Origin: Omnitrophica WOR_2 bacterium GWF2_43_52
Lineage (GTDB): Bacteria > Omnitrophota > Gorgyraeia > Gygaellales > UBA12090
DNA length: 64,000 bases
NCBI GenBank assembly: GCA_001805445.1
Contig: MHGF01000036.1
Location: forward strand, 7,526-71,525
Reading direction: 5' to 3'
Positions within the stretch are counted from its first letter, which is position 1. Each line of letters opens with the position of its first letter. Under the pieces are notes generated by a model. It worked only from the letters and a program-made list of their open reading frames with translations, made no database searches and was not told where the DNA came from. Made by a program: the position numbers and the translations under genes. Below are positions 33,762-61,453 of the stretch, in pieces.

Positions 33762-34719
33762 ACCTGTTCTTACTATCCTCATTTCTTTTGCCTTGTGTTC
33801 CGTTTTTTTATGCTTTTTAAAGAAACAATTTTTACAGAGAGCGCCGCAGTGTATCCCTTCAGTCGGTGGGATTAGCATAGGGATAGTATCGCTTATAGTC
33901 TGTTTTTTAGTGCTTTTTATAGGTAAGGGGCTATCCCACAATATGATAGGGATTTTAGCCTCTTCTTTTATAATGTTGCTGTTTGGTATCATTGATGATA
34001 TCTTTGAATTGTCAATAGTGGCTAAATTCATCGCCCAGATTTTCTCACTATCAGTCTTGATTGCTTGGGGTATAAGGGCTAATATCGTTGGTATTGGTGT
34101 TTTACTGAATTTAGTGGTAACGTTTCTATGGGTTTTGGGGGTTTCTAATGCTTTTAACCATTTAGATGTAATGGATGGCCTGGCAGGAATGGTTGCAATG
34201 ATGGTGAGTTTTGGTTTGCTATGGGTAAGCATTGGAACCTTCGATATCCAGGCAATTATTTTACTCTGCGCGCTCATAGGGGCCTTATGGAGTTTTTTAA
34301 TTTACAACTTTCCCCCAGCAAAGGTTTATTTAGGCAATGCTGGGAGCCATTTCTTGGGATTTATTATAGCATCGCTTGCTTTATTAGCACACTATGCGCC
34401 TTTAGAAAGAAAGATTGCCCTGCTTTCACCTTTAGCTATTCTTGGTTTTCCTGTTTTCGATACGGCATTCGTAATAGTAATGCGTTTGCGTAAGCATCAA
34501 TCTCCTTTTAAGAAAAGTGACGACCATCTTGCATTACGATTGCTAAAAAATGGATATACAAAAAAAGGGGCGCTGATTTTTATGGCTTCCTTATGCATCT
34601 TTTTTGTGGTGAGCGGGATAGTTTTAAGCAGCGTTTCTAATATAATCGGCCTTAGAGTTATTATAACTGTTGTTTTAGTGAGTTTATGCGTAGTTGTCCA
34701 ATGTAGTAAAATAGGATAA
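33745..34719 (+). CDS. Polyprenyl-phosphate sugar-1-phosphate transferase (WecA/MraY family); likely initiating enzyme
   Basis: About 10 TM helices; NAFNHLDVMDGLAG corresponds to the MraY/WecA NxxNxxDGIDGL motif. Confidence 0.75.
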   Translation: MQIFIKPVLTILISFALCSVFLCFLKKQFLQRAPQCIPSVGGISIGIVSLIVCFLVLFIGKGLSHNMIGILASSFIMLLFGIIDDIFELSIVAKFIAQIFSLSVLIAWGIRANIVGIGVLLNLVVTFLWVLGVSNAFNHLDVMDGLAGMVAMMVSFGLLWVSIGTFDIQAIILLCALIGALWSFLIYNFPPAKVYLGNAGSHFLGFIIASLALLAHYAPLERKIALLSPLAILGFPVFDTAFVIVMRLRKHQSPFKKSDDHLALRLLKNGYTKKGALIFMASLCIFFVVSGIVLSSVSNIIGLRVIITVVLVSLCVVVQCSKIG

Positions 34720-36032
34720 TGGCGAAGAAGAAAAGGATCATCATTGTAGGTGCAGGATTGTCAGGATTAAGTGCTGCATGGCATCTTCAGAAAAGAGGGA
34801 TAGAATGTCTAGTCTTTGAGAAAGAACCCGAGGTAGGAGGACTATGTCGTTCTAAAAAAATAAACGGCTTTACTTTTGATTACGCAGGGCATCTTTTACA
34901 TTTTAGGCATCGTTACGCTTTTAATCTTGTTAAGCGTTTACTAAGCGATAATCTACACCCATATAAACGGAGTGCTTGGGTTTATTCTCATGAGCGGTAT
35001 ATACCGTATCCTTTTCAGGCAAATCTTTTTGGTTTACCTCCTAAAGTTGTTAAAGACTGCCTCATGGGTTTTATTCAGGCGCATCATAATAAGCGTTTCC
35101 TCAAAAAAAGAAATATGAGTTTTCATGATTGGATATACGATACTTTTGGCAAAGGGATAGCGGCCCATTTTATGGTTCCTTATAACAGGAAATTTTGGAC
35201 AGTTCCCCTTACTGAATTAACCTGTGAATGGTTGAATGGTTTTATCCCTTTACCCTCTTTAGCTGAGGTAGTTGAAGGAGCTGTGCAAAAGACAAAAAAA
35301 GATGGTTGGGGATACAATAGCCGCTTTTGGTACCCCGAGAAAGGGGGTATTGCTTCGCTTCCTTTGGCGTTAGCAAGGCAGATTAGAAATATATATACCC
35401 ATTGCGAAATTGTAGAGGTAAACTCCAAGGAAAAAGAAATCAGAATGAAGTCAGGAAGCAAAGAAAAATTCGATTGCCTTATTTCTACAATTCCTTTGCC
35501 TGAGTTCGGCTGTTTATTTAAAAGTCTCCCACAGTCGATACATAGTTTATTGCATAAATTAAAATGGAATTCTATTTTTAATCTTAATTTAGGCCTCCAA
35601 AAGAGAAAGAATGCGCACTGCCACTGGGTATATTTCCCGCAAAAAGAAATCAATTTTTTTCGCATAGGGTTCCCTTCGTGTTTTTCTCCATACACAGTAC
35701 CATCGCGGGGGAGTTCCTTATATGCAGAGGTGGCATATTCCAAGGATCAACCCATCGACAAAAGCTCGATAGTCTCCTCTATCAAGAAGGATTTGCAAAA
35801 GATAGGAATCATAGGAGGCGAAGGTGATGTGTGTGCCCAGGATGTTAACGATATAAGATACGGATATCCTATTTATGACAAAAACTATCGAGGAGCAAGA
35901 AAAGGCATAGTGCGCTTCCTCTTGCAAAAACAAATTATTCCCTGCGGCCGTTTTGGCTCATGGCGGTATATGAGTATGGAAGATGTGCTATTAAATGGCA
36001 TGGAATTAGCAAAGAGCATAGCTCATTATTAA
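34719..36032 (+). CDS. FAD-dependent oxidoreductase, UDP-galactopyranose mutase-like
   Basis: Rossmann IIIVGAGLSGLSAA...FEKEPEVGG; internal FWYPEKGGI; C-terminal CGRFGSWRYMSMEDV resembles the Glf C-terminus (GRLG.Y.Y..MD). Confidence 0.55.
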   Translation: MAKKKRIIIVGAGLSGLSAAWHLQKRGIECLVFEKEPEVGGLCRSKKINGFTFDYAGHLLHFRHRYAFNLVKRLLSDNLHPYKRSAWVYSHERYIPYPFQANLFGLPPKVVKDCLMGFIQAHHNKRFLKKRNMSFHDWIYDTFGKGIAAHFMVPYNRKFWTVPLTELTCEWLNGFIPLPSLAEVVEGAVQKTKKDGWGYNSRFWYPEKGGIASLPLALARQIRNIYTHCEIVEVNSKEKEIRMKSGSKEKFDCLISTIPLPEFGCLFKSLPQSIHSLLHKLKWNSIFNLNLGLQKRKNAHCHWVYFPQKEINFFRIGFPSCFSPYTVPSRGSSLYAEVAYSKDQPIDKSSIVSSIKKDLQKIGIIGGEGDVCAQDVNDIRYGYPIYDKNYRGARKGIVRFLLQKQIIPCGRFGSWRYMSMEDVLLNGMELAKSIAHY

Positions 36033-38859: not shown

Positions 38860-40719
38860 ATGAATGATAAGATCCCGCTCATAAGCATTATTGTCGTTAA
38901 TCATAATGGGAAGCAATTCTTGGAACCTTGTTTCGGCACGTTATTAAATCTTGCTTATCCGAAAGATAAAGTAGAGCTCATTATGGTAGATAATTGTTCT
39001 ACAGACAATTCTGTAAATTTCGTTAGAGAAAGATATCCAGAAGTTATCGTTCTTAAGAATGATGTCAATAATTACTGCCGTGCTAACAATGTGGGCATAG
39101 AGCACGCGAAAGGTGAATTTGTGGCTGTGCTCAATAATGACACAAAAGTGGAGCAGAATTGGCTTCGTGGGCTTGTGAATCTAATGATAGAATATCACGA
39201 TGTTGCCGCGGTAGGAAGTAAAATCTTATTTATGGATGGTAAAATAAATAGTGTAGGGCATAGGGAATTGCCTGATTTTTATTGGACAGACCTGGGATAT
39301 AAGGAAACTGATGGTGGCCAGTATGATACTGTTTGTCAGGCCAGTAGTGTATGCGCAGGCGCAGCACTATTTAGAAAAACAGCCATAAAGCAAATAGGCC
39401 TGTTCGACGAAGACTTCGAGATGTATGTCGAAGATGTTGATGTAGCGATACGCCTTAAGAAAAGTGGATGGAGGATAATGTATTCTCCTTTTGGTATTGT
39501 TCATCATCAATTTCATGGGACATCAAATGATGCGTTGGCAAGATTCTATGTGGAAAGAAACCGGTTGTTACTTATTGCAAAACATTATCCGGAAAAATTG
39601 AGCGCTGCATTTTTAGGGAGAGGTTATTTTACCGTGACGCACGATAGTAATAACCTTACCGACGTGTATGCCATCCTGCCGTTAGTATTTTCAAAATTGT
39701 TACGCCACCATGGTATTGAAACAATTAATGCCCTCTTGCCAGATCTATTTGATAATTTAAAAAAAATTCTTAATTTTGAGAAAGATTATTTAATCCAGGC
39801 TTTAGATGGCGAAAGAGTAAAGCTTCAGCTTAAAGATAAAGAGTTAACCCAAATAGATATCGAAAAAAAGGAACAGTTGCAAGATGCTTCGCAACAGCTC
39901 CAACAAAGGCTTGCTGAGCTTCAGTTAAAGGGTAAAGATTTGCTTCAAAAAGACGCCATTATACGAGAAAAGAATGATCTGTTAAAGCAGGTTTCCGAGC
40001 AGCTTCAACAAAAGCTTTCCGAAGCAGATGTTCTTAAAAGACAAATTGACGCTTTTTATTCTTCAGAGACATTTAGGTATGTGGTTCGTCCGTTATGGGC
40101 AATGCTTGAGTATATAAAGAAAACTCGGAATGGGCATAAGGGAAGAGAGGCTGAAAAGCGCGTTTTGTTTATCAAGCCCCAACAAGTATCTGTTCGGGAT
40201 ACTGAGAAGATATTAGAAGAATTCCAAGAGCAATATCCCTGCGCACGAATTTCCTTAATTGGTAATTTGCTGGTAGATGATTATGGGCGATTATCTCGAA
40301 ATGCTACGATCAACGAGGGGTTGTTGTATTGTCCCGATGCCAGAAGCTTTAGCATTTTAGAAAAAGTGCGGTTGACCTTACAGTTGCCAAGAAAGAAATA
40401 TGCTGTGGCGATAGTGCTGGCAGGGCAACGGTTTTATCTAGGGTATACTCTTGCGAGAATGTTGGCTCTTTTAAGCGGCGCAAGAGAAGTTAAACAAATA
40501 CTGGTTGACAGAGGGAGCGGAGCGGAAAATCGCCTGGAGTCCATGCCTCTTAAGAAAATAGCGATAGTGAGGGATATGGTTGTGCAGAGTATAGTGCACT
40601 TGCTTAATGGCTTTTTTGTGTTAGGGGTCATGCTTCTTTTTTTCATCTTTATAATCATTGATTTAAAGATCAGAAAATTAATATATAAACTGAAAATCTA
40701 CTTCTTCGCTAAGATATGA
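38860..40719 (+). CDS. Family 2 glycosyltransferase with C-terminal coiled-coil region and C-terminal TM helix
   Basis: ISIIVVNHNG...MVDNCSTDNS...DED GT2-A motifs. About 100-aa heptad-like segment (LQLKDKELTQIDIEKKEQLQDASQQLQQRLAELQLKGKDLLQKD...). Terminal hydrophobic helix. Confidence 0.8.
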   Translation: MNDKIPLISIIVVNHNGKQFLEPCFGTLLNLAYPKDKVELIMVDNCSTDNSVNFVRERYPEVIVLKNDVNNYCRANNVGIEHAKGEFVAVLNNDTKVEQNWLRGLVNLMIEYHDVAAVGSKILFMDGKINSVGHRELPDFYWTDLGYKETDGGQYDTVCQASSVCAGAALFRKTAIKQIGLFDEDFEMYVEDVDVAIRLKKSGWRIMYSPFGIVHHQFHGTSNDALARFYVERNRLLLIAKHYPEKLSAAFLGRGYFTVTHDSNNLTDVYAILPLVFSKLLRHHGIETINALLPDLFDNLKKILNFEKDYLIQALDGERVKLQLKDKELTQIDIEKKEQLQDASQQLQQRLAELQLKGKDLLQKDAIIREKNDLLKQVSEQLQQKLSEADVLKRQIDAFYSSETFRYVVRPLWAMLEYIKKTRNGHKGREAEKRVLFIKPQQVSVRDTEKILEEFQEQYPCARISLIGNLLVDDYGRLSRNATINEGLLYCPDARSFSILEKVRLTLQLPRKKYAVAIVLAGQRFYLGYTLARMLALLSGAREVKQILVDRGSGAENRLESMPLKKIAIVRDMVVQSIVHLLNGFFVLGVMLLFFIFIIIDLKIRKLIYKLKIYFFAKI

Positions 40720-41912
40720 ATATATGTTTCCTATCCAGAGAGTATCCTCCTAAGATTATTGGTGGCGTTGGTACCTATACCTATGAAATGGCCCAGGCAT
40801 TACGCGCGTTAGGCCATGGAGTGTACATCATTACAGAGGCTATCGGTGAGGAAAGGGAATTGTATGAGGATGGCATTTATGTAATGAGAATCGCCTGCCG
40901 GGATATTCCCTTATTTGCTCCTTTTAGAAATGTGCTCAAGATGACCATTGATCGTTTAGAATACAGTTATGCCGTATCAAAAAAGTTGAGCCGCATAGTT
41001 GAAAAATATAAAATAGATATCGTTGAGAGCTGTGAAGCTCGGGCTGAAGGATTTTGGTATTATCTGTTTCATCGTAAGCCGCCTTTAATCATTAAATTGC
41101 ATACACCAGAAAAGATAGCATTTAGGCTTGACCGCATAACTGAGAGCTTAGATGTAAAAATAAGAAATTTATTAGAAGAATGGTGGATTCTTCGGGCAGA
41201 TAAGATAGTCGCGGTAACAAAGGCCATAGCGGGATTAGTATCGCACTATTACCATATTGAGTTAAAAGATTTATCTCCAGTATATTATCCTCTCAACGCG
41301 GAACTGTTTAAGCCAAATGGTCACCTATCAAAGAATACGAATCCGGTAGTTTTATATGCGGGAAGGCTAGAGGTAAGAAAAGGTGTGCTCATATTATTGG
41401 AGGCAATCCCTTTGGTTATTGCAGAATTTCCCAATGTTCAATTCTATTTTGTTGGTGCCGATGCAGGCATTAAATATCGCATGGATAAAATGATTGATAG
41501 GCTTGGATGTGCAAAAAATATCACTTTTGTTAGTCAAGTAAGTAGAGAGGAAATGGTCTCTTATTATCGGTCTTCCGATATATGCGTGTTCCCCTCACTA
41601 TGGGAAAATTTTGCTTTTACTGCGCTTGAAGCTATGGCATGCGCTAAGACAGTGATCGTTAGCCGTACAGGAGGATTCCTTGAAATGATTGATGACGGGG
41701 TAACTGGTATTTTTTGTGACCCCGAGGATCCCTGCGATGTAGCGGAAAAGATGCGATGCGCTCTAAGAGATGCCTCATTTAGAGCGTCTATAGGGGAGCA
41801 AGCAAGGGCCAGAGTATTACAGAGGTATGCCCCAAGAAAAAAGGCAAAGGAGATGGCTGAAATTTATCAAAAAATGCTTAGCAGAAATAATCATGATAAA
41901 AAGGGAGAGTAG
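40716..41912 (+). CDS. Glycosyltransferase family 4
   Basis: REYPPKIIGGVGTYTYEMAQAL N-terminus; C-terminal E..FAFTALEAMACAKTVIVSRTGG. Confidence 0.85.
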   Translation: MNICFLSREYPPKIIGGVGTYTYEMAQALRALGHGVYIITEAIGEERELYEDGIYVMRIACRDIPLFAPFRNVLKMTIDRLEYSYAVSKKLSRIVEKYKIDIVESCEARAEGFWYYLFHRKPPLIIKLHTPEKIAFRLDRITESLDVKIRNLLEEWWILRADKIVAVTKAIAGLVSHYYHIELKDLSPVYYPLNAELFKPNGHLSKNTNPVVLYAGRLEVRKGVLILLEAIPLVIAEFPNVQFYFVGADAGIKYRMDKMIDRLGCAKNITFVSQVSREEMVSYYRSSDICVFPSLWENFAFTALEAMACAKTVIVSRTGGFLEMIDDGVTGIFCDPEDPCDVAEKMRCALRDASFRASIGEQARARVLQRYAPRKKAKEMAEIYQKMLSRNNHDKKGE

Positions 41913-42170
41913 TTAATGAAGTGTTTATTACAGGTGCCAGGGCCATGGTATCGCTCTCTTGTTGAGATTTGCATGAGACGGCCAAGATAAGAAGTACAGC
42001 CTTGTGGGTAAAAGGTATTCGAAGTGTTATTAATCCCTAGCATTAAATCAAATCCAGCTAAGCATAGTATATGCTCATCAACCATATTCTCAGAGATGGA
42101 AAAACAGGGTATTGCGGGCATCCCTGTAAGGAGAGGTAACTATTGCCTTATGTTTGGATCATAAGGAAAA

Positions 42171-44609
42171 ATGGTTAGATGTAGAAAAATGGGAAAAACA
42201 GCCCTGAGAGATATTTATTTGTTAAATGAGTTTACCGATATATGTAATTTGAAGTGCATTATGTGCGACCATGGGCGCGGTAAGAAGATCCATGGAGAAT
42301 ATCCTCTTGGTATCCTGCCAGACGAACAGTTCCAGCGTATCCTTAATCATATCAAGTATCAGGGAGTGCATATCAAGTGTTTTCACGCAGGATGGCTCGG
42401 CGAACCTCTTTGTCACCCCGCATCTTCCATCCTGCTTGCGCAATTATTTAGGGAAAACGCATTGTATAATTATTTTGACGGTTTTAGCATGAATACAAAC
42501 GGTATATTGTTGCATAAGGAAATAAGTAATGTTTTTTTAGACTATGCTCAGTTTCTAGAAGAAAAAAAATCAGGGTTTGTTAGGATTCATATGTCGCTTC
42601 ATGCAGCAACAAAAAAAATATATGAAACAATTACCGGTAAGCAGGGGGAAAATATTGGAAAGGTGTTGGATAATATTGATTATCTTATGGCAGAAAGAAA
42701 AAAGAGAAACCTTCAGTTGCCAAACCTAACGTTTCTTTTTGTTGTGACTGAGAGTAACAAAGACGAGGCTAAGGCATTTCTTCGTTTTTGGCAGAAAAAA
42801 CTCAAAGAATACAACAGAAAATTTGAAATTATATTTGATTGGCCAAAAGATGCTCCAGGGATTGATACCGATGCGATATATTTCAGGAGAGAAATTGCCT
42901 ATGAACAATATAAGGCAGAACAATTGCACAAGCAGGTAGCCTGCCGGCTTGGACTGATACCTAAGCCCATGATGAAGGAACGGATTATTAAATCAAACGA
43001 AGTGTTGCGGAAAACTGTAGAGGAAAACTACAATTATCAGAGACGACCATGTCCTGCCCTCTTTCGTACTCTCGTGGTTCATAACACAGGAATCGCAGTC
43101 CCTTGTTGCAGCGATTTACGCTTGGAATTGAAGGTAGGGGATTTGACAAAACAATCCTTAGACGTAATCTGGCATGGTGAGGCGATTACGGAAATGAGAT
43201 TGGCGCATATACGGGGTGATTTCGCAAAATATAACCGTTGTTGTTATTGTAACAATATTGATTCATTTGTAATTTCAGATGATGAAATAGTGCAGTATCT
43301 CGATGATATTGGCAGAAAAGATGAAATTATGCCTTTCTTAAGGCGTATGCGTAAGATGGAGGCAGTGTTACCGCTGCGCCTTCGGGAAAGATTAAACATC
43401 TGTTTGGTTTCTCGTGAGTATCCCCAAGAAACAGGGTGGGGGGGGATAGGAACGTATACTTATCAGTTAGCCACGGGATTAGAAAAGAAGGGGCATACAG
43501 TGCATGTGGTTGCTTTGAGTTTAAATGGGAATAAAGAATATACGCAGGATCATATTTATGTCCATCGCATAGCTGCTTCCGGCCTATTTTGCTTTAAGGG
43601 TTTTTTCCCCGAGTTTCTTACTCGGTTAGAATATAGTTATCATCTCTACAAAACATTGCAGCAGCTTATTCGTAAGTACAGTATTGATATAGTAGAGGCT
43701 CCTAACTTCTTCGCGGAGGCCTTTATTTATTCTTTATTCGGGAACGTCCCTCTGGTGATACGGTTACATTCATCCTTTAAAGAAATAATCAAGGCATACG
43801 GATGGCCGTTTACCTTAGACCGGAAGCTAAGTTGTTTTATGGAAGATAGTGCTATTATCCGTAGCGATTTAATAACGTGTTCAACGAAAATATGCGCTCA
43901 GTCTATGGCGGAAGAAGCGGGGATTGATGTTCGCAGGATTGCCGTGATTCCTTTAGGTGTAATGCTTCCTGATATCCAGGAGGAAAGGCTTGGAGATAAT
44001 TATGAAGATGATGAAACGTTGCGGGTACTTTTTGTTGGAAGATTGGAGCGAAGAAAAGGCGTGCATATTTTAATGCAGGCTATTCCCAGAATCTTAGAGG
44101 AAATGCCTCATGCGCATTTTACCTTTATCGGCAGGGATACCTTTATCAATGCCAAAAATTCCGCTTTCACAGGCTCAAAGAAGGAATCATTCAGAGAGTT
44201 TCTTTTAAAAGATTTTCCTCAGCGCATGAAGGGTAATCTTCATTTTCTAGGATTTGCTGAGGAAGCAGAATTGCGGCATTATTTAAGAAACTGCCATTTT
44301 CTCGTTGCGCCTTCCTTATATGAAACATTTGGATTTATTTACATAGAAGCTATGTCTTATGGAAAGCCTGTAATTGGTTGCAAGGTCGGAGGTGTGTCAG
44401 AAGTCATTATTGATCAAAAAACAGGAATAGTGGTGCCTCCTGCAGATTCAAATGCCCTCGCGCAGGCAATAGCATATTTGCTTAAAAATAAACAGGTGCG
44501 GGTTAAGATGGGTCAGGCAGCGTTTGAGCATGTTAAGAATAATTTTATTTGCGATACAATGATTGAGAGGACGCTCAATGCTTATAAAGAAGTCTTGCGC
44601 AGAAAATAA
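42171..44609 (+). CDS. Fusion protein: N-terminal radical SAM/SPASM domain (~400 aa) plus C-terminal GT4 glycosyltransferase (~400 aa)
   Basis: CNLKCIMC (CxxxCxxC) at residues about 25-32; Cys-rich SPASM-like region CPALF...PCCSDL...NRCCYCNN. GT4 then restarts with LNICLVSREYPQETGWGGIGTYTYQLATGL and ends with the E..FGFIYIEAMSYGKPVIG motif. Confidence 0.8.
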   Translation: MVRCRKMGKTALRDIYLLNEFTDICNLKCIMCDHGRGKKIHGEYPLGILPDEQFQRILNHIKYQGVHIKCFHAGWLGEPLCHPASSILLAQLFRENALYNYFDGFSMNTNGILLHKEISNVFLDYAQFLEEKKSGFVRIHMSLHAATKKIYETITGKQGENIGKVLDNIDYLMAERKKRNLQLPNLTFLFVVTESNKDEAKAFLRFWQKKLKEYNRKFEIIFDWPKDAPGIDTDAIYFRREIAYEQYKAEQLHKQVACRLGLIPKPMMKERIIKSNEVLRKTVEENYNYQRRPCPALFRTLVVHNTGIAVPCCSDLRLELKVGDLTKQSLDVIWHGEAITEMRLAHIRGDFAKYNRCCYCNNIDSFVISDDEIVQYLDDIGRKDEIMPFLRRMRKMEAVLPLRLRERLNICLVSREYPQETGWGGIGTYTYQLATGLEKKGHTVHVVALSLNGNKEYTQDHIYVHRIAASGLFCFKGFFPEFLTRLEYSYHLYKTLQQLIRKYSIDIVEAPNFFAEAFIYSLFGNVPLVIRLHSSFKEIIKAYGWPFTLDRKLSCFMEDSAIIRSDLITCSTKICAQSMAEEAGIDVRRIAVIPLGVMLPDIQEERLGDNYEDDETLRVLFVGRLERRKGVHILMQAIPRILEEMPHAHFTFIGRDTFINAKNSAFTGSKKESFREFLLKDFPQRMKGNLHFLGFAEEAELRHYLRNCHFLVAPSLYETFGFIYIEAMSYGKPVIGCKVGGVSEVIIDQKTGIVVPPADSNALAQAIAYLLKNKQVRVKMGQAAFEHVKNNFICDTMIERTLNAYKEVLRRK

Positions 44610-44697: not shown

Positions 44698-46053
44698 ATG
44701 AAAATCATGCAAGTAACGCACAGTTTCCCGCCGTATACCTTTGCCGGAACTGAGGTATATGCATATGCCTTAGCAGTAGAGTTGTCTAAAAGGCATAGGG
44801 TTTCAGTAGTGTTCAGGGTCAATCAGCCTCATGAAAAAGAATATGCGCTATCTGTTAATAATCGCGGAGATTTTGCAACGTACAGTATTAATAGAACATT
44901 TAATACGTGCGATTCTTTCGGCCAGACATATGATGACCACATAGTATCTGCTATAGGAGGGAGGCTTTTAGACGAAGTTAATCCCGATGTGGTGCATATC
45001 CAACATCTTTTATTCCTTTCTATAGGGATTATTAAGGAAGCTTGGAAAAGGAGGATACCTGTAGTTTTTACTCTCAATGATTACTGGTTAATGTGCCATA
45101 AGGGGCAGTTAATCAAAAACGATTTTAAGGTTTGTCAAGGATATACGATAGATGGCTGTAGAGTGTGTTTGGAAGCGCAGTTGAGTATAACAAAATATAG
45201 CATTTTCTTTTATAATCTTCTAAGGAGGCATTTGCCCGTTCAGCTAACACAGTTTGTAAAGAGCCTTTATATACTATTTGCCAGAAAAACATTTTTGAGC
45301 CAGAGGAAATCCTCCACGTTAATTTTAAAGCGTTATGCGTCTATGCAGGCAATAACTTCACGTATCGACTATTTTGTCGCGCCATCTCAGTTCATCAAAA
45401 AGAAATTCATCGCATTCGGGTTCCCTCAGGAAAAGATATTTTTCTTTTCCTATGGAATAAAACACCGAAGCGTAAGCCCTGGGGATAAAACTTATTCCCC
45501 TAATTTAAGAATAGGCTATATCGGGACGTTAATCCCGACGAAGGGGGTTAGTATTCTGATTTCCGCCTTTAGAAAGATTATTAAAAAGAATATCAGGCTC
45601 AGTATCTATGGGAAATTAGCCCCGTATGCTGGCTATGAAGCATATTATAGGCAGATTATTAAAAGTGCGCGCGATGAGAGAATTGCCTTCATGGGCCAAT
45701 TCGACAATAGCAAAATTTTTGATATATTAAGAAGTATCGATATTTTAGTTGTTCCTTCTCTGTGGCTAGAAAATTCCCCTTTGGTTATACATGAAGCCTT
45801 TATATCAAAAACGCCTGTTATCGCATCGCGAATCGGGGGGATCCCTGAGCTCATCTGTGATGGCATGAACGGTTTGCTTTTTAACCCCGGCGATGCCGAT
45901 GATTTAAGTGAGAAAATAAAGCAGGTTATGGAAAATCCTGAAATACTCGCGTGCATGAGAAGAAACATGCCGGCTATTAAAAGTATAGAAGAAAACGCTA
46001 TGGAAATGTTAGAGGTGTATAAGAAAGCATCTATGAATTGTGGCACGGTATGA
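44698..46053 (+). CDS. Glycosyltransferase family 4
   Basis: KIMQVTHSFPPYTFAGTEVYAYAL N-terminus; C-terminal E.SPLVIHEAFISKTPVIASRIGG. Confidence 0.8.
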   Translation: MKIMQVTHSFPPYTFAGTEVYAYALAVELSKRHRVSVVFRVNQPHEKEYALSVNNRGDFATYSINRTFNTCDSFGQTYDDHIVSAIGGRLLDEVNPDVVHIQHLLFLSIGIIKEAWKRRIPVVFTLNDYWLMCHKGQLIKNDFKVCQGYTIDGCRVCLEAQLSITKYSIFFYNLLRRHLPVQLTQFVKSLYILFARKTFLSQRKSSTLILKRYASMQAITSRIDYFVAPSQFIKKKFIAFGFPQEKIFFFSYGIKHRSVSPGDKTYSPNLRIGYIGTLIPTKGVSILISAFRKIIKKNIRLSIYGKLAPYAGYEAYYRQIIKSARDERIAFMGQFDNSKIFDILRSIDILVVPSLWLENSPLVIHEAFISKTPVIASRIGGIPELICDGMNGLLFNPGDADDLSEKIKQVMENPEILACMRRNMPAIKSIEENAMEMLEVYKKASMNCGTV

Positions 46054-46084
46054 TAGTAAATCCTGTGTAATGTTCTGGCAGCCT

Positions 46085-47998: not shown

Positions 47999-49303
47999 AT
48001 GAAAGTCCTACTTCTAAAACCATGTTGGCCGTATCCTGTCGGAGATGATTTTATCTATAACCGAATATGGCCTCCTTTATGCTTAGCCAACTGCGCTGCC
48101 TTGTTGCTACGAGAGGGACATACGGTAAGAATATTCGACGCGCATGCAGAGAGGACTCCCGCGGATAAAATTAAAGAACATGTATATGGTTTTGATAAAA
48201 TATTTATAACTTCTTCAGCGTTAGACAGATGGCAGTGCCCAAATCTAAACATAGAGCCTTTTTTACGCGCAGCCCGTCTGATAAGAAAAGAAAACGACGA
48301 ACTCTATGTGATGGGTTATCATGGGACTGTAAATCCTGATGAAATCTTATCGCTGACAGGGGCGAAGGCGATTATTAGGGGGCAGCCAGAAATAGGCGTT
48401 TTAGAGATATGCCAGAATCAAAGTTTATCCCGTATAAAAGGTATCAGTTATAGAAGCAGCGGTAAAATAATATCTACTGCCGAGAGAGCTGTGATAGACT
48501 TGGATACTCTCCCTGTGCCCGCCTTTCACTTGGTTAATTTTAAGTATTATTTTTATGAAATATTAGGGAGCAACTTTGCGTTGTTTGAAGGCTCGCGAGG
48601 TTGTACGCATGGGTGTACATTTTGTTCTAAGGTAATGTTTGGAGTTACCTTTAGGCAGAAATCACCCATGAGGTTAATGGAAGAGATTGATAGAGCAGTC
48701 AGAGAATGTAAGATAAAAACAGGCTATTTTATAGATCTTGATTTTACGCTTAACAAGAAGTGGGTTGAAGAAGTCTGTAGCCTTCTTATAGAAAGAAACT
48801 ATGATTTTGAATGGTGCTGCCAGGCAAGGTTAGATGAAGTTGATGCGCCGCTGCTAAAGAAGATGAAACAGGCAAAGTGCCGGTTAATTCATTATGGCGT
48901 GGAAACAGCCTCTGATAAGATGTTGAGGCTGGCGCATAAAGGCTTAACTACTGAGAGAATAACAGAGGGGATACGATTGACGCAGGAAGCAGGGATTAAA
49001 ACATTGTGCTTCTTTATGATAGGGTTATCATCTGATAGTAGGGAAGAAATGAGGCAGAATATGGCGTTTGCCCATAGATTAAATCCTACGTACCTGCATT
49101 ATCATCTTGCCGTTTCTTATGGCGCATCCTGTATTCAGGAGAATAGCCTTAATCTTCCATGCGATGTGAGCAGGCGAATGATTAAGCACGCCATTATGAA
49201 ATTCTATCTTCGCCCAAGGTATATAATCCAGCGTCTGAAGCAGAAGGAAGATAGAAAAGCCATGCTCAGGCAGTTGAAACTATTATATGCATATATACGA
49301 TGA
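47999..49303 (+). CDS. B12-binding domain radical SAM protein (class B radical SAM)
   Basis: N-terminal cobalamin-binding Rossmann-like domain; radical SAM triad GCTHGCTFC; 434 aa. Confidence 0.8.
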   Translation: MKVLLLKPCWPYPVGDDFIYNRIWPPLCLANCAALLLREGHTVRIFDAHAERTPADKIKEHVYGFDKIFITSSALDRWQCPNLNIEPFLRAARLIRKENDELYVMGYHGTVNPDEILSLTGAKAIIRGQPEIGVLEICQNQSLSRIKGISYRSSGKIISTAERAVIDLDTLPVPAFHLVNFKYYFYEILGSNFALFEGSRGCTHGCTFCSKVMFGVTFRQKSPMRLMEEIDRAVRECKIKTGYFIDLDFTLNKKWVEEVCSLLIERNYDFEWCCQARLDEVDAPLLKKMKQAKCRLIHYGVETASDKMLRLAHKGLTTERITEGIRLTQEAGIKTLCFFMIGLSSDSREEMRQNMAFAHRLNPTYLHYHLAVSYGASCIQENSLNLPCDVSRRMIKHAIMKFYLRPRYIIQRLKQKEDRKAMLRQLKLLYAYIR

Positions 49304-51084
49304 ACATAAAGAGCGGCTTGTTGGAAAAGAAAAGCATGGCATTGAGTATTTTTAGTATTGCAGCCATTATCTTTTGTTCCCCTATTTTTCATAACTTTAG
49401 CTATTTAGGGCAGATGGATTGGGACCAGTTTACCTTTTGGAATGCGGTTCCCAGAAAAACGGTCCTGACGTATCATCAATTTCCTCTTTGGAATCCTTAT
49501 GGTAACGGCGGAAATGTTCTCTTAGCCCATCCCCACTCCTCATTTTTATCTCCCTTTTACCTTTTCGTATTATTTTTTGGCCCGGTAACCGGGATAAAAT
49601 TGGAAATTATAGTTCTTTTAATTATCGGAATGCTTGGGATGTTTTTATTGTCTAACCATATGGGGGGGAAAGGAATATCCTCATATGCGCCATCTTTTGT
49701 TTTTATGTTAAGCTCTATTTATCCGCTGCATTTAACTGAAGGCCATGTGGAGTGGTTAGGGATGGCATTTGTCCCATGGTTATTTTTATCTTATCTAAAG
49801 AGTATAGATAATAAGAACTATGTATATGTGGCACTATTACTTTTTGCGGTAATGGTATTAGGGGGTGGCGTTTATATCTCAGTAATAATGGCTGCATTTC
49901 TTACGCTCTATTCATTTGTTATGATTGTGCGAGAAAAAAGAATCGTGTGGCTTAGAAATATAGCTATTATCTTCGCGGGCGTTTTCCTGCTCTCTTCGAT
50001 TAAATTGTTCCCTATGCTTGAGTTTCTAACTCATTCCCCCAGAACTATTGAATCTACGGAAAATATAAGCCCGTTGTTACTTCCTACTATTTTGTTAGAT
50101 AGAAATCAAGGTGGTTTATATGCTCAGACTAAATGGAGTGCTCCTGATAAGAAGGCTTTTGTCGGGAACAATGTAGTGATAGATTACGGTTGGCATGAAT
50201 ATGGCGCATATATAGGAATTATCCCCCTGCTGTTATTTGCCGGGGGCATATTTTTTAGCTTTAAAAAACAATGGCCATTCCTCTTGATTGGAATTATTTT
50301 TCTGATACTGAGCTTGGGGCGAGGTTTTCCCATTGATCTATGGCGGATACTGCATTTTTTACCAATCTATGATTCCCTCCATGTACCTTCAAGATTAATC
50401 CTTATTTTTATTTTCGTTCTTTCCATCTTTTCCGGTTTATGTTTATCAAAAATTGAAGAAAACATGAAAAAAATGAATACAGGCAGGGCAGGAGTATTTC
50501 TGATAGTTTTGTTCATTTTTTTAGATTTATATTTAGTGAATGGCTTTATTTTAAAGCAGGCATTTGTAATTGCACCAATAAGAGTTGAATATAACGCAGA
50601 ATTTAAGCAAAGGTATGATTCCGTTAATTTTTATCCCGCTATTAGCCGCAGCGCTATGTATCCCATCTTTTTAAGCAATAGCGGGATACTTGACGCGTAT
50701 GAAGTGATAAATGTTAAAAAGGGAAATGTTCTTGCAGTTAAGGATCCTGGGTATAGAGGGGAGGTTTATTTAGCTGACGGCAAAGGTAGCGCAACGATTA
50801 CTTCTTTTTCTCCCAATAGAATAGTTGTAAATGTTAACGCTCATGACGTGGATACTTTAGTTTTGAACCAGAATTATTATAAAGGTTGGAGGCTAAAAGG
50901 TTGTCATGATCCCAGAGTAAGATCTTTTAATGGCCTTATTGCAGCACATGTTGATTCTTCGGATAAGAAAGCAATATTTTTTTATATGCCAAAGAGTTTC
51001 ATCATAGGGTGCCTTGTGACCGGTGCAAGCATAATAACAATATTTTTATTTTTGTTAAAGAGTAAACTGGCAAGCAATGATTAA
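49300..51084 (+). CDS. Polytopic membrane protein, GT-C-like (YfhO-like) candidate glycosyltransferase or polymerase
   Basis: About 12 TM helices; conserved FPLWNPYGNGG loop; C-terminal soluble beta-rich domain; 594 aa. Confidence 0.45.
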   Translation: MNIKSGLLEKKSMALSIFSIAAIIFCSPIFHNFSYLGQMDWDQFTFWNAVPRKTVLTYHQFPLWNPYGNGGNVLLAHPHSSFLSPFYLFVLFFGPVTGIKLEIIVLLIIGMLGMFLLSNHMGGKGISSYAPSFVFMLSSIYPLHLTEGHVEWLGMAFVPWLFLSYLKSIDNKNYVYVALLLFAVMVLGGGVYISVIMAAFLTLYSFVMIVREKRIVWLRNIAIIFAGVFLLSSIKLFPMLEFLTHSPRTIESTENISPLLLPTILLDRNQGGLYAQTKWSAPDKKAFVGNNVVIDYGWHEYGAYIGIIPLLLFAGGIFFSFKKQWPFLLIGIIFLILSLGRGFPIDLWRILHFLPIYDSLHVPSRLILIFIFVLSIFSGLCLSKIEENMKKMNTGRAGVFLIVLFIFLDLYLVNGFILKQAFVIAPIRVEYNAEFKQRYDSVNFYPAISRSAMYPIFLSNSGILDAYEVINVKKGNVLAVKDPGYRGEVYLADGKGSATITSFSPNRIVVNVNAHDVDTLVLNQNYYKGWRLKGCHDPRVRSFNGLIAAHVDSSDKKAIFFYMPKSFIIGCLVTGASIITIFLFLLKSKLASND

Positions 51085-52594
51085 CAAAAAATTCAATAAA
51101 ATATGCCTTATAAGGATGGATTCGCGTATTTTAAAGATAACAGCAGGACATCCTAAACATTTTTCTCCGCCTTTTACGCTAAAATATATACAGGCATTAT
51201 TGGCTAAAAATGAAAATTTCCAGGTTAAGCTGATTGATTGCATAGTTACTTCGGTAGATTTGAAAAATCTTCTTGATCGTTCCCTGGACTGGGGCACAGA
51301 GGTAATGGTTGTTTCTAGCACTACGCATAGCAGGGAACTGGCAATGCAATTCTGTTCGTTGGTTAAGATGAAAAAGGATGTTTTTGTTGTAGCTGTTGGG
51401 CAAGGAGCAACCGCTCATTCTTTTGATTATTGCTTTCCATCGTCTCCTTTTGATGTTGTGTTGCGAGGTGAATCTGAGCAAGAGGTAATTTCTTTGCTTG
51501 AATCTTTGAATAGTGGGGAAAACCAGCAGCAGATCAGAGAAACATACCGTAAGAAGTTGAATGCAAAGGAAGTTACTCTAATTTGGGATTTGGATTCTTT
51601 GCCGTTTCCAGATTATGAGGATAGAGAAATAGAAGCCTACCGCTTTTTTTATCCTATAAGGACATGGAAAAGGCTTCGTTGGGGCCATATTCTTTCGTCC
51701 CGCGGATGCCATCACGGCTGCATATTCTGTTCTCAAATAATCAGGGAAACGTACGGGAATAAAATGAGATTAAGGGACCCTGTGAAGGTAGTTGATGAAA
51801 TTGAATATTTAATGGGCAAGGGCATTAACATTATTGCATTTGATGATGATAATTTTACTGCTTCAGCGCAGCATGTTGTTGCAATATCCTCGGAATTAAT
51901 AAAAAGAAAATTGAAAATTCGGTGGATTGCTCATGCGCGGGCAGATGAACTCAGTATTCCTCTCATGCATCTTATGAAAAAAGCGGGCTGCGTTTTATTG
52001 CGTTTTGGTATTGAATCGGCTTCAGCTCGAATTATCAGGATTCTTAAGAAAAATACCCGGGATACCAATTGGATAGAGACAATTGAAAATATCCTAAGGC
52101 ATTGCAGAAAAACTGGAATCGCAACGCATGCCTTATTTATGGTTGGGAACCCTACTGAGACGTCGGAAGAAATAAAAGCAACGATACAATTAGCTGAAAT
52201 ATTGAAGCCGGATTTAATACAGGTGCATTTTTTTACTCCTTATCCCGGTTCAGTTATATATGAAAATGTCTGTAATCACGTAATCAGAAACCATCAATTG
52301 TCGCAGATGCATCATTATGCTTTCCCAAAGGTAAATTTAGCGTATGTTGATAGTGATGATTTAATGATGTTGCGTGCTCTATTCTATAGAAGGTTTCTAT
52401 TGAGGCCGTCTTTTTTGCTCAAGCATTTTTCCCGATATTTTTTGTATTACCTTGCCAATGGCAGATGTAGATATGCGTTATTAAAGGTTTTTAAAATTTT
52501 ATTTCAACGCAGAGCTGGAAAGCGGTCCCAATTCTGCAGGAAAAGAGACGGTGGTTTTTTGGCGCTCGATGCGCTTAATAACGGGATTATATGA
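51077..52594 (+). CDS. B12-binding domain radical SAM protein
   Basis: Triad GCHHGCIFC, B12-binding N-domain; 505 aa. Confidence 0.8.
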   Translation: MINKKFNKICLIRMDSRILKITAGHPKHFSPPFTLKYIQALLAKNENFQVKLIDCIVTSVDLKNLLDRSLDWGTEVMVVSSTTHSRELAMQFCSLVKMKKDVFVVAVGQGATAHSFDYCFPSSPFDVVLRGESEQEVISLLESLNSGENQQQIRETYRKKLNAKEVTLIWDLDSLPFPDYEDREIEAYRFFYPIRTWKRLRWGHILSSRGCHHGCIFCSQIIRETYGNKMRLRDPVKVVDEIEYLMGKGINIIAFDDDNFTASAQHVVAISSELIKRKLKIRWIAHARADELSIPLMHLMKKAGCVLLRFGIESASARIIRILKKNTRDTNWIETIENILRHCRKTGIATHALFMVGNPTETSEEIKATIQLAEILKPDLIQVHFFTPYPGSVIYENVCNHVIRNHQLSQMHHYAFPKVNLAYVDSDDLMMLRALFYRRFLLRPSFLLKHFSRYFLYYLANGRCRYALLKVFKILFQRRAGKRSQFCRKRDGGFLALDALNNGII

Positions 52595-54039
52595 AAGTTG
52601 CATTAATTTTTCCGACATATGCCCATAAAATATTTACTGAAAATTTGAGCACTGTTGATGAGGAATTTTGTGTCGCTCCGCCGATAATACTGGCCTATGT
52701 GGCTGCGATTCTTGAAAAGCATGGTCACGCGGTAATGTTACTTGATGCAAAAGCATTGACTCTTTCAAAAGAGGAGGCGTTGAAAAGGTTTGTGGCGTTT
52801 GAGCCGGATATATTAGGTTTTAGGGCCGAAACATACTATTTCCATGAAGCATTAGACTGGATCCGCTATCTTAAGGCTCATCTTGGAGTTCCGGTAATAG
52901 CAGGAGGAATTAATTTGACCTTGTATCCTCTCGAAGTTCTTTCTCACCCGGAGATTGATTATGGAATTATTGGTGAGGCTTTTGAGTCTCTCCCGCGGTT
53001 TCTTTCCGCTTTAGAAAATGGCGATGACTATTCGCGCCTGTCCGGCGTCGCCTATAAGGATGATGAAAATAAAGTAGTGATAAATCCTCCTGAGCATAAG
53101 GTGTACGATTTTGATTTATACCCCTATCCTGCACGGCATCTCCTGCCAAACGATAAATATTATTCTTTTGTGTCGCAGCGGAAAAATTTTACCATAATGC
53201 TCACGAGCACGGGGTGCCCTTATGGATGTTTATTTTGCGCGATTCCTTTTTCTTATAGGGTAAGGACTCCTGAAAATGTTGTTGATGAGATTGAAGTTTG
53301 TTATCAAGATTTCGGAGTGCGGGAAATCGATTTTTTTGATGCGGTATTGTTTATGCCCAGAGAGCGCATACGGGAGATTTTTCGCTTAATTCAAAGACGC
53401 AAATTAGATATAGAGTGGTCAGCCCGCTCAAGGATTGATGTAGTCGATGAGCAACTGCTCAAAGAGGCTGCACGGGCAGGATGCAGGCAAATATACTACG
53501 GCATAGAATCTGCAGATCAGCAAATTCTTGATAGTGTGAAAAAGGGGATACAGCCAAAAGCCGTAATTGAAACGATAAAAATTTCTAAGAAGTTTGGTAT
53601 ACGGACTATGGGTTTTTTTATGGTGGGTAACCCCGGCGAAACCAAGGAAAGCGTGCGTAAAACTATAGAATTCTCAAAAACCTTAGGTTTAGATTTCATC
53701 CAGGTTTCGCGGACAATCCCAAAGCCAGGGACAGAACTTGATAATGCGATGATGAAGGTGAGCATGCGTGATTATTGGAGAATGCATGTGCAAGGTGAAG
53801 AAATAGCGCATAGATTGCCAACCCCATGGGTTAATTTAACTGAACAAGAAAAGGAGTCTTTGGCAAAGGAGTTCTATATAAAATTTTATTTTCGCCCAAG
53901 AATTATAGCGCAAAGGATACTGCAGTTGCGATCATGGGAGGAATTTATAAGGTACATCAGAGTTGCGTTGAAAATCATATTCCAGAAATCAGAATTAAGC
54001 TTGAGGCGTACGGGGAGCGAAATAAAAAACTATGAATAA
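52591..54039 (+). CDS. B12-binding domain radical SAM protein
   Basis: Triad GCPYGCLFC; 482 aa. Confidence 0.8.
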   Translation: MKVALIFPTYAHKIFTENLSTVDEEFCVAPPIILAYVAAILEKHGHAVMLLDAKALTLSKEEALKRFVAFEPDILGFRAETYYFHEALDWIRYLKAHLGVPVIAGGINLTLYPLEVLSHPEIDYGIIGEAFESLPRFLSALENGDDYSRLSGVAYKDDENKVVINPPEHKVYDFDLYPYPARHLLPNDKYYSFVSQRKNFTIMLTSTGCPYGCLFCAIPFSYRVRTPENVVDEIEVCYQDFGVREIDFFDAVLFMPRERIREIFRLIQRRKLDIEWSARSRIDVVDEQLLKEAARAGCRQIYYGIESADQQILDSVKKGIQPKAVIETIKISKKFGIRTMGFFMVGNPGETKESVRKTIEFSKTLGLDFIQVSRTIPKPGTELDNAMMKVSMRDYWRMHVQGEEIAHRLPTPWVNLTEQEKESLAKEFYIKFYFRPRIIAQRILQLRSWEEFIRYIRVALKIIFQKSELSLRRTGSEIKNYE

Positions 54040-54174
54040 AAGGAGTTTAAAGAACAGAAGCGCAATAGTGCCTTGTCAAATAATAAAAACCAAAACAGTG
54101 TAGCGGGGTGCGCGAGCTTTTTTTATGACGCTACTATGAGTCAACGCAGGGCGCTTGCGCTTTAAAAGGACAGA

Positions 54175-55626
54175 ATGCATAAACCGAATAAGGTTGTTTT
54201 TATCAGGTTCCCAAAAAACTTACAAAAAAAATCCCATCCGACTGAAACGGTTTGGCCTTTTTCCATAGGCATCGCAGGGACTATACTAAAGAGATTGGGC
54301 TTTTCCATAAAGATAATTGACCTTCAGGTTGAAGAAAATCAGAGATATGACAATGCCATGCAAGCTATTCTGAGCCTTGATATGGATATGCTTTTTGTCC
54401 AATATGAAACGCTTTCACTTTGTTTGGCTTCGTCTTTTTGCGCCCAGTTAAGAAAGGTAAAAGAAAATATTATTGTCATTGGCTTTGGACAGCATGCTTC
54501 TGCTCTTCCTCGTGAACTTATTGAGAGCCATGGGGCAGATATCTGTATCACTACTGACCTTGAGTTTGTTATAGAGGAATTAGTTCATGCTATTCAAAAT
54601 GATAGTCTCGTAAAACTTAAAAATATCGCTTACAAGGATTGCGAGAAGGTTATTATTAAAGAAAGCGCTGTGCCTGATTTTCATCCGGATTCTCTTCCAT
54701 TTGTTGATCCATCCCTTTTTCAGCTTACTCGATACAGGCGAAAAAAGTTTCCCAAGCCATTCTTTTGGGGAAAGGACTGGGGTTTCGTCAGAACAAGCTT
54801 AGGGTGTCCCTACCATTGTATATTCTGTTCGCCTCTTCTAAGGCATTCCATAGAGAAGGCATACAGGGCCCATTCAATAGGGTATATTTATAGGCAAATT
54901 AAATATTACAAAGAAGAGTTTGGGTTAAGGACTTTTTCTATGGAAGACGATATATTCTCCATTGATGAAGACAGGACCCTGCGTCTTTGCGATGCGCTCA
55001 GAAGCCTAAGAATAAGATGGGTTGTTGATGGGGCCAGGGCCGATAGGTTATCCGCGGCGTTATTAAAAATGATGAAGCAGGCCGGATGTTATGGAATAGG
55101 TATTGGTATCGAGTCAGGAAGTCAGAATATTTTGGATAGTTTAGGAAAGCAGCAAAACAGGGAAAAGATAAAAGAATGCGCCCTTACTATAAAAAAAACA
55201 GGCATGCTGTTGGTCGGGTACGTTATGGTGGGAGCTCCCCGTGAGACCGAGCATGAGGTAGAAGAAACCTTTCGCTTGATACGTGAAATAGCTCCCCATG
55301 TCCTCTACGCGCACTATTTTATCCCTTACCCAGGCTCACAGGCATATGAACTATTTAAAGAAAAGCTTTTTCTTGCGCATATGACGCATTATAGATACCC
55401 TCGAGTGAATTTTAGCAATATGGATGCTATAGTATTAAGGAATTGCATGAAAACGCTCTATGCCCGCTATTATTTATCTTTTAGCTACCTAAAAGAATAT
55501 ATAACAGGGAGATTGAAATATGCGCTCTTTGATATACATGAGGTAATGTTACTTAAAGATGCGATTGTATTTATTATGCGTGGAAATCAAAAAGATGAGA
55601 CTATCGAAAAAATTGAAAGCTTGTAA
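54175..55626 (+). CDS. B12-binding domain radical SAM protein
   Basis: Triad GCPYHCIFC; 483 aa. Confidence 0.8.
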   Translation: MHKPNKVVFIRFPKNLQKKSHPTETVWPFSIGIAGTILKRLGFSIKIIDLQVEENQRYDNAMQAILSLDMDMLFVQYETLSLCLASSFCAQLRKVKENIIVIGFGQHASALPRELIESHGADICITTDLEFVIEELVHAIQNDSLVKLKNIAYKDCEKVIIKESAVPDFHPDSLPFVDPSLFQLTRYRRKKFPKPFFWGKDWGFVRTSLGCPYHCIFCSPLLRHSIEKAYRAHSIGYIYRQIKYYKEEFGLRTFSMEDDIFSIDEDRTLRLCDALRSLRIRWVVDGARADRLSAALLKMMKQAGCYGIGIGIESGSQNILDSLGKQQNREKIKECALTIKKTGMLLVGYVMVGAPRETEHEVEETFRLIREIAPHVLYAHYFIPYPGSQAYELFKEKLFLAHMTHYRYPRVNFSNMDAIVLRNCMKTLYARYYLSFSYLKEYITGRLKYALFDIHEVMLLKDAIVFIMRGNQKDETIEKIESL

Positions 55627-56629: not shown

Positions 56630-56695
56630 TGATTTCTGCGGAAGAGGCATGATAGGTAATGAGGAAAGGATGAGGCAGGCCTTTATCGGGTAGTT

Positions 56696-58276: not shown

Positions 58277-58311
58277 GGTTTTTCTTTAGCGTAGCACGTT
58301 GCTAAATAAAA

Positions 58312-59364: not shown

Positions 59365-59435
59365 AATGAAAAAGCAGCTATGCAATGAATGCTGGCAGAC
59401 AATAGCAGGGGTGAATCCTGCTAAGGAGGCTGTGC

Positions 59436-60440: not shown

Positions 60441-60445
60441 AAATT

Positions 60446-61441: not shown

Positions 61442-61453
61442 GAATACTGCGCT

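Follow-up and report, generated by a model that had tools for sequence, protein, structure and literature searches.

A BtrN-like radical SAM twitch domain fused to a GT4 glycosyltransferase in a Wzm/Wzt polysaccharide locus of an uncultured Omnitrophota bacterium

Why would a single polypeptide join radical chemistry to glycosyl transfer, and on what would its radical half act? This question is raised by one gene in a 64,000-nt stretch of DNA (hereafter the window) from Omnitrophica WOR_2 bacterium GWF2_43_52, a metagenome-assembled genome (MAG) of the Omnitrophota (assembly GCA_001805445.1, contig MHGF01000036.1, positions 7,526 to 71,525 of the forward strand). The encoded protein, 100% identical to "hypothetical protein A2Y00_07030" of this MAG, carries a radical S-adenosylmethionine (SAM) domain followed by a glycosyltransferase of family 4 (GT4) and is encoded in a polysaccharide locus. 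An earlier, sequence-only reading had described it as a continuous 812-residue open reading frame (ORF) with a radical SAM core and a canonical GT4. This description was borne out: the frame reads through both halves, and four Pfam domains lie above their curated cut-offs. Radical_SAM (PF04055) matches aa 20-206 (42.4 bits vs a cut-off of 29.5), SPASM aa 294-361 (42.8 vs 21.5), Glyco_transf_4 aa 423-597 (E 6.8e-21, 75.5 vs 28.5) and Glycos_transf_1 aa 612-786 (E 1.3e-34, 119.6 vs 26.4). The radical SAM domain occupies aa 13-397 and a complete GT4 occupies aa 408-812, with a linker of about 10 residues between them. The NCBI gene call begins at 42189 (M7, 806 aa), which leaves the finding unaffected. 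The features of the fusion, in window coordinates, are as follows.

42171..44609, + strand: whole fusion ORF, 812 aa, ATG start, no internal stops
42207..42905, + strand: radical SAM core, aa ~13-245; six-stranded partial TIM barrel with the GGE-like motif W75-G77-E78
42243..42266, + strand: CX3CX2C (C25, C29, C32), from the sequence the predicted ligands of the SAM-binding [4Fe-4S] cluster
43050..43250, + strand: twitch auxiliary-cluster domain, aa 294-360; C294-X12-G307-X4-C312 ... C357-X2-C360, with C313 nearly invariant
43278..43361, + strand: C-terminal helices of the radical SAM domain, aa 370-397, from family members and the structure model
43356..43391, + strand: inter-domain linker, aa ~396-407; low model confidence, length varying in the alignment
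43392..43970, + strand: GT4 N-terminal (acceptor) lobe, Pfam Glyco_transf_4; starts at the conserved LNICLVSREYP..GWGGIGTYTY
44004..44606, + strand: GT4 C-terminal (nucleotide-sugar) lobe with GRLExRKG (aa 623-630); Pfam Glycos_transf_1, GT4 matches in the PDB and invariant columns
44322..44348, + strand: EX7E motif (E718...E726) of a retaining GT4, invariant in 14/14 sequences

Three contigs from separate assemblies (two JGI metagenomes and one NCBI MAG) carry the 2421-nt gene and the gap upstream of it without a single nucleotide difference, and the GC content is even across the junction of the two halves. The same architecture was found in 18 full-length homologues and two junction-spanning fragments, 34-62% identical to the window protein, from NCBI, JGI, ENA and Logan assemblies; two further fusions were present among 50%-identity representatives. 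A survey of 185,579 species-representative genomes recovered the full fusion in two, both Omnitrophota, and every named carrier is an uncultured member of that phylum. The fusion is a genuine conserved gene, and a merging error is effectively excluded.

The radical SAM half has the hallmarks of its superfamily, namely the CX3CX2C motif, the above-cut-off Pfam score and a partial (beta/alpha)6 TIM-barrel fold. We used two alignments, one of the N-terminal domain (A2, 17 sequences) and one of full-length fusions (A1, 14 sequences). In the 17-sequence alignment E20, C25, C29, C32, the GGE-like SAM motif W75-G77-E78, T109-N110, R176, N196, E199 and D234 are invariant, as are C294, G307, C312, D315, R343, C357 and C360. 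The Cys-rich region that follows the core had been read as SPASM-like. A SPASM domain binds two auxiliary clusters through the seven-Cys motif CX9-15GX4C-gap-CX2CX5CX3C-gap-C (PMC6231123). A twitch domain is a shortened form of SPASM with one auxiliary cluster and the first four Cys of that motif, one before and one after a beta-hairpin and two after helix alpha-2' (PMC6231123; PMC9012708). In the window protein the CX5CX3C...C part is absent and no Cys follows C360 within the domain, whereas C294, C312, C357 and C360, together with G307, are invariant in both alignments. The complete radical SAM core of the earlier description stands, while the SPASM label has to be narrowed to its first four of seven Cys, that is, to a twitch domain; the Pfam SPASM model nevertheless scores 42.8 bits because it covers twitch domains too. 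The family behaves alike, since the twitch pattern is present in 138 of its 150 best representatives and CX2CX5CX3C in none.

Comparison with solved structures placed this domain beside BtrN, the 2-deoxy-scyllo-inosamine dehydrogenase of butirosin biosynthesis (PDB 4M7S/4M7T). BtrN was the sole match in a single-sequence search (E 7e-5), and in a family-profile search it was matched at E 2.8e-17 over both core and twitch, followed by CteB (2e-8), the anaerobic sulfatase-maturing enzyme anSME (4e-6, limited to the N-terminal core) and MoaA (8e-5). In the profile comparison the four twitch Cys align one-to-one with the auxiliary-cluster ligand positions of BtrN, which likewise combines CX3CX2C with one auxiliary cluster. 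Moreover, the AlphaFold (AF2) model of aa 1-405 is confident (predicted local distance difference test, pLDDT, 87; predicted template modelling score, pTM, 0.87) and superposes on BtrN at 2.4 A over 206 residues. To judge from these patterns, the Cys-rich region is a BtrN-type twitch domain with one predicted auxiliary [4Fe-4S] cluster. The fold alone does not separate sugar-acting from peptide-acting enzymes; it is the sequence that points to BtrN, whose substrate is a carbohydrate-like aminocyclitol. The reaction type, in turn, is not readable from similarity within this subfamily (PMC6231123). The two enzymes also differ. BtrN, of 250 aa, stands alone, belongs to an aminoglycoside antibiotic cluster and has a small soluble molecule as its substrate. 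The present domain is about 395 aa long (some 145 more) and shares about 17% identity with BtrN; it has additional C-terminal helices and an insertion that separates strand 6 from the twitch hairpin, its fusion partner is a GT4, and its setting is a Wzm/Wzt polysaccharide locus.

The C-terminal half is a standard retaining GT4 of the GT-B fold and looks catalytically competent. E718, E726, R624 and K629 are invariant in 14/14 sequences and the N-terminal glycine-rich loop is present; the EX7E motif and the basic Arg/Lys pair, which would contact the nucleotide-sugar phosphates, are together what we take to be the signature of CAZy family GT4. Both lobes exceed their Pfam cut-offs, the AF2 model of this half consists of two lobes of alternating strands and helices, and its PDB relatives include MshA, PimA, TreT and BshA. 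The resemblance to the stand-alone GT4 at 40716, which the sequence-only reading had drawn from a pair of motifs, also held: those motifs align, and the two proteins are paralogues (32% identity, E 4e-62).

The two halves are joined by a short connection. Helices at aa 370-397 also terminate stand-alone and otherwise-fused members of the family and are assigned to the radical SAM domain because of this; the true linker is about 10 residues long (aa ~396-407). A full-length AlphaFold model is confident in both halves (mean pLDDT 83.5), with a pTM of 0.52 and pLDDT <50 at aa 396-404. The idea that the two active sites might face each other drew no support from this model, which contains no confident inter-domain packing.

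Among the homologues we distinguished two N-terminal lineages: type A, the radical SAM lineage of the window protein, and type B, a divergent one. The GT4 half is 42-59% identical to that of the window protein across the homologues, whereas in four of them (type B) the N-terminal half is only 15-17% identical, with the four twitch Cys retained. One and the same GT4 orthologue is thus joined to two twitch radical SAM lineages that differ greatly from each other. In both type-B loci at hand (L008 and L015) the gene directly upstream of the fusion encodes a type-A twitch radical SAM that stands alone (E 6e-132 and 1e-58). Additionally, some homologues are triple fusions of about 1245-1258 aa that join a B12-binding radical SAM, a twitch radical SAM and the GT4 (P0008-P0011; L006 10001-13777), and in L006 the triple fusion (B12-binding radical SAM, type A, GT4) is accompanied by a second, stand-alone type A. 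From the type-B loci and L006 it follows that the window-type radical SAM is always fused to, or lies beside, this GT4 orthologue.

The same GT4 clade (E ~1e-126) is found in archaea at the C-terminus of stop-to-stop ORFs of 744-993 aa, L014 8567-10798 (Methanohalophilus euhalobius WG-1MB) and L013 8580-11558. The N-terminal region of these archaeal proteins, about 340 aa, matches neither radical SAM profile.

The family beyond these fusions is large and has further links to carbohydrates. A profile search of 1.84 billion representatives returned 1,695 clusters at 50% identity with E ≤1e-30. Among the best 150 representatives 86 are stand-alone (301-460 aa), 56 are longer and 7 carry this GT4 clade. 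Partners of the longer members include GT4 (in one case as radical SAM-CBM_11-GT4), CBM_11, CIA30 and laminin-G-type carbohydrate-binding modules, as well as B12-binding radical SAM domains, tandem twitch copies, and TPR repeats with a GDSL esterase. The labels of ten stand-alone representatives are generic or of the "AslB" type only, and all ten have uncultured sources. Another, word-indexed search made with the N-domain profile yielded just 14 proteins, all of them distant and stand-alone. All three distant stand-alone members that were looked up lie in sugar pathways (L088, L089 and L090): a dTDP-deoxysugar locus, a NeuB/CMP-sugar locus with Wzx and Wzy, and a nonulosonic-acid locus with an aminotransferase and a formyltransferase. 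These loci point to a wider role of the clade in sugar tailoring.

The same three loci (from Verrucomicrobiae, Deltaproteobacteria and a metagenome contig) hold two or three twitch members each. Another arrangement is found in P0023-P0026, proteins of about 780 aa in which a window-type twitch radical SAM forms the C-terminus behind an unannotated N-domain of about 390 aa; the weak match of that N-domain to a carbamoyltransferase (PDB 7XB6, E 0.003) is a lead only.

The surroundings of the fusion gene agree with a role in glycan assembly. The gene lies in a run of + strand genes from 32580 to at least 62461 that encodes a Wzt with its Wzt_C domain, a WecA-type transferase and, at the position of Wzm, an ORF whose identity as the permease comes from its syntenic counterparts. 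It is an ABC-transporter-dependent (Wzm/Wzt, WecA-initiated) cell-surface polysaccharide locus of the O-antigen type. The order Wzm-Wzt-GT2-GT4-[radical SAMs]-fusion-GT4 recurs in L001, L002/3, L006 and L008. Ten radical SAM genes, the fusion included, are present in the locus; neither nucleotide-sugar synthesis genes nor a classical SAM methyltransferase were found in it.

What, then, would the fusion do? We consider it on balance likely that it is a bifunctional enzyme which adds a sugar to a glycan and radically modifies a sugar of that same glycan, so that a sugar-directed radical SAM activity is coupled to glycosyl transfer. The substrate of the radical SAM domain itself is probably a sugar. 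The sequence-only reading had argued from the covalent link that the radical SAM enzymes of this locus act on the glycan or on a glycosylated substrate. For the radical SAM half of the fusion, that claim is strengthened by the likeness to BtrN, the CBM_11 fusions, the conserved synteny with Wzm/Wzt, WecA and glycosyltransferase genes, the alternation of fused and adjacent forms and the sugar loci of distant members, but it is still inferred.

In the mechanism that we propose, the CX3CX2C cluster would cleave SAM to a 5'-deoxyadenosyl radical, which would abstract a hydrogen atom from a sugar carbon, either of the residue handled by the GT4 or of its nucleotide-sugar donor. The single auxiliary [4Fe-4S] cluster, held by four Cys, would then accept an electron to give a keto-sugar, as in BtrN, where the auxiliary cluster has been proposed as the electron acceptor (PMC9012708). 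Alternatively, a hydrogen atom would be returned to the opposite face to give an epimer. The nearly invariant C313, beside the ligand C312, is presumably a candidate hydrogen donor for this, by analogy with HygY and NeoN. A dehydrogenation or an epimerisation, the two taken jointly, is possible, and we put it forward with some doubt. The GT4 would add a sugar to the same lipid-linked chain, and the fusion would hold two consecutive steps on one polypeptide; alternatively, the donor would be modified first and then channelled to the GT4. Modification after glycosyl transfer is favoured because nucleotide-sugar tailoring genes are absent from the window locus. As to the modified species, we tentatively suggest a lipid-linked glycan, and regard the nucleotide-sugar donor as rather unlikely.

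A broader and speculative possibility is that surface polysaccharides are tailored after glycosyl transfer by the battery of ten radical SAM enzymes in the locus, with the fusion serving as an add-then-oxidise or add-then-epimerise module on the lipid-linked chain. If true, this would be a glycan counterpart of the maturation of RiPPs (peptides that are made by ribosomes and modified after translation). In a sharper form, the radical-made modification may be a non-reducing-end cap that is read by the C-terminal domain of Wzt, in which case radical SAM chemistry would control chain termination and export.

Several observations weigh against the bifunctional, sugar-directed reading. In three Omnitrophota species the GT4 orthologue occurs by itself, neither a type-A nor a type-B radical SAM being encoded nearby, so the GT4 can do without the radical SAM domain. 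The closest relatives that are not fused to a glycosyltransferase (the P0024 group, 35-38% identity) lie outside glycan loci, next to an M23 peptidase, an FGE-sulfatase family gene and thioredoxins (L007 10001-12340). Neither an aminotransferase nor a ketoreductase, enzymes that would use up a keto-sugar, is conserved beside the gene. Full-length AF2 predicts no fixed interface between the halves, which, with a 14-sequence alignment, is weak evidence either way. Fusion of enzymes is unusually common in Omnitrophota (2026 preprint), and fusion is a weaker functional signal here because of this habit. Lastly, the homologue P0019 has a 9-residue deletion, in the part aligned to aa 20-35 of the window protein, that removes the CX3CX2C loop, while the four twitch Cys and the GT4 are kept; it is represented by a single Logan contig, and either a fusion with a dead radical SAM site or an error of assembly may lie behind it.

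Much of this would be expected if the two halves served the same pathway at non-consecutive steps and had been joined as a neutral by-product of gene merging in Omnitrophota. This is the rival that survives best, and we judge it unlikely. It would account for the GT4 orthologue that stands alone, for the missing interface and for the fusion habit of the phylum, and it fits the variety of fusions nearby (GT2 with radical SAM in L002, B12-binding radical SAM with twitch and GT4, and tandem twitch radical SAMs). It does not sit well with the joining of one GT4 orthologue to two radical SAM lineages of 15-17% identity, with a window-type radical SAM that is always fused or immediately adjacent, or with a fusion retained down to 34% identity. 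Direct coupling of the two activities is the reading we keep.

A second rival makes the radical SAM domain a maturase of peptides or proteins, either a RiPP SPASM enzyme or an anSME-like one, with the GT4 glycosylating that same peptide or protein. The Pfam SPASM match fits it, and so do the FGE-sulfatase family gene and the M23 peptidase in the neighbourhood of the P0024 group. The best NCBIfam match of the N-domain is also to a maturase, that of a tungsten enzyme, but at 55 bits against a cut-off of 380 it is far sub-threshold; no NCBIfam model, RiPP maturase models included, reached its cut-off for the N-domain or for nine stand-alone relatives. In addition, the CX3CX2C motif comes so early (residue 25) that an N-terminal peptide-recognition (RRE) domain would not fit in front of it, and the four C-terminal ligand Cys provide for one auxiliary cluster, compared with two in anSME. 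The neighbours are all glycan-assembly genes, and carbohydrate-binding modules are among the fusion partners of the family. As for a precursor peptide, one short ORF (24 aa, read by eye) in the gap upstream of the fusion has no support as such, no systematic small-ORF search having been made. We consider a maturase very unlikely.

A third rival directs the radical SAM domain at a lipid instead of a sugar, either the polyprenyl carrier or the lipid part of a glycolipid made by the GT4. Family GT4 includes glycolipid synthases, PimA among the PDB matches being an example; radical SAM enzymes that modify lipids are known, one of which, GDGT-MAS, is a weak match; and Omnitrophota are discussed in the literature as possible tetraether-lipid producers. 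The similarity in sequence is nevertheless to BtrN, with GDGT-MAS reaching merely E 0.15, the fusion partners are carbohydrate-binding modules, and the exporter is a Wzm/Wzt glycan transporter with Wzt_C. We consider a lipid target very unlikely. That two neighbouring genes were joined by a sequencing or assembly error is almost certainly wrong: the DNA of three assemblies agrees to the letter, independent projects supplied at least 20 homologous fusions, two species-representative genomes carry the fusion, and the composition is even at the junction.

Other radical SAM enzymes that modify carbohydrates offer a comparison. BlsE, DesII, SpeY and AprD4, which have structures in the PDB and many of which have twitch domains, oxidise, epimerise, decarboxylate or dehydrate sugars, and HygY and NeoN are further carbohydrate-modifying members. 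In contrast to the window protein, all of these are stand-alone enzymes of secondary-metabolite pathways, and none was matched at E ≤1 in the profile search. To our knowledge, nearly all radical SAM enzymes of established action on carbohydrates belong to antibiotic pathways and have small soluble intermediates as substrates.

From the side of the polysaccharide, multi-domain enzymes are familiar in O-polysaccharide synthesis: WbdA has two GT4 modules, WbdD is a terminator composed of a kinase and a methyltransferase, and WbbB combines terminating and polymerising glycosyltransferases. The window locus resembles these systems in WecA-type initiation, cytoplasmic assembly, Wzm/Wzt export and the fusion of a glycosyltransferase to a second catalytic module. 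It differs from them in that no coiled-coil "ruler" is predicted in the fusion, and we know of no radical SAM domain in WbdA, WbdD or WbbB. A genomic link between a GT4-type glycosyltransferase and a radical SAM/SPASM protein exists in the TIGR04157 system of Bacteroidota, which is peptide (RiPP)-associated; there the genes are separate. The GT half of the window protein weakly matches TIGR04157 (glyco_rSAM_CFB) at E 4.7e-23 and 81.8 bits, against a cut-off of 400, and is not a member.

Each part of the fusion is of a known kind (a twitch radical SAM, a GT4, a Wzm/Wzt pathway), and their combination is undescribed in the literature we found. We searched for this fusion, for radical SAM enzymes in O-antigen/Wzt systems or in Omnitrophota, and for SPASM with glycosyltransferase, and met no description. 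The earlier statement that the architecture is new thus holds for published accounts; the proteins themselves are already public as "hypothetical protein" or "glycosyltransferase". GT1 and radical SAM are listed as co-occurring Pfam domains in giant proteins of Omnitrophota (2026 preprint). An eLife paper on "GT4-conflict" systems concerns unrelated vWA-MoxR systems.

A conserved fusion of a BtrN-like twitch domain with a GT4 would extend radical chemistry to the assembly of cell-surface polysaccharides. It also narrows the search for substrates of a large, orphan clade of BtrN-like twitch enzymes and, if the reading is true, would be the first substrate clue for that clade. The system amounts to one expressible protein of 812 aa in which the activity of the partner, glycosyl transfer, sets the context. 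Its practical value is limited for now, since the named carriers are all uncultured Omnitrophota.

The remaining genes of the window fall into two parts. Positions 1-32600 are occupied by housekeeping genes (dnaG, rpoD, gpsA, hom, thrC, valS, uvrB, birA and coaX), among which a MiaB/RimO-type methylthiotransferase (UPF0004 + Radical_SAM) at 232-1554 has no relation to the glycan locus. The polysaccharide locus around the fusion contains the following genes.

32580-33761, + strand: GT4, start of the locus
33745-34719, + strand: WecA/MraY-type polyprenyl-phosphate sugar-1-phosphate transferase (Pfam Glycos_transf_4)
34719..36032, + strand: FAD amine-oxidase-like protein, syntenic in L001 and L002
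36034-36855, + strand: ORF of 273 aa at the Wzm position; no Pfam match at E ≤0.01, its counterparts in L002 and L006 matching ABC2_membrane
36859-38595, + strand: Wzt ABC ATPase with the Wzt_C glycan-binding domain at aa ~274-396 (Pfam ABC_tran; Wzt_C at E 2.3e-31)
38860..41912, + strand: GT2 (619 aa) and GT4 paralogue (398 aa), a pair kept upstream of the fusion in every related locus
44698..46053, + strand: GT4 of 451 aa, downstream of the fusion and syntenic in related loci
46040-47995, + strand: ORF of 651 aa, no Pfam match at E ≤0.01
Starts at 47999, 51077, 52591 and 54175, + strand: four B12-binding radical SAM genes
Start at 49300, + strand: AftD-like GT-C, interleaved with the B12-binding radical SAM genes
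Start at 56696, + strand: DUF2079 membrane protein
Starts at 55559, 58312, 59436, 60446 and 61454, + strand: five small radical SAM genes, tandem paralogues of ~330-356 aa, within 47999..62461

Membership in the fusion's family was considered for the nine further radical SAM genes of the locus and rejected (best E 7e-7, partial); they are only distant paralogues of a small radical SAM whose gene lies upstream of the fusion in other loci. Scans for promoters and terminators near the fusion gene stayed at background level. Directly upstream of the fusion lies a 259-bp non-coding gap (window 41913-42170). In L002, L006 and L008 this place is taken by the gene for a radical SAM protein of about 310 aa that is conserved among the three loci (42-54% identity), in some cases accompanied by a stand-alone twitch radical SAM; the gap was considered as a remnant of that ~310-aa gene, which was rejected as no signal was found. 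A second fusion of a glycosyltransferase with a radical SAM domain, a 683-aa GT2 + Radical_SAM protein, is encoded at L002 14629-16680 and also at L003 7536-9587.

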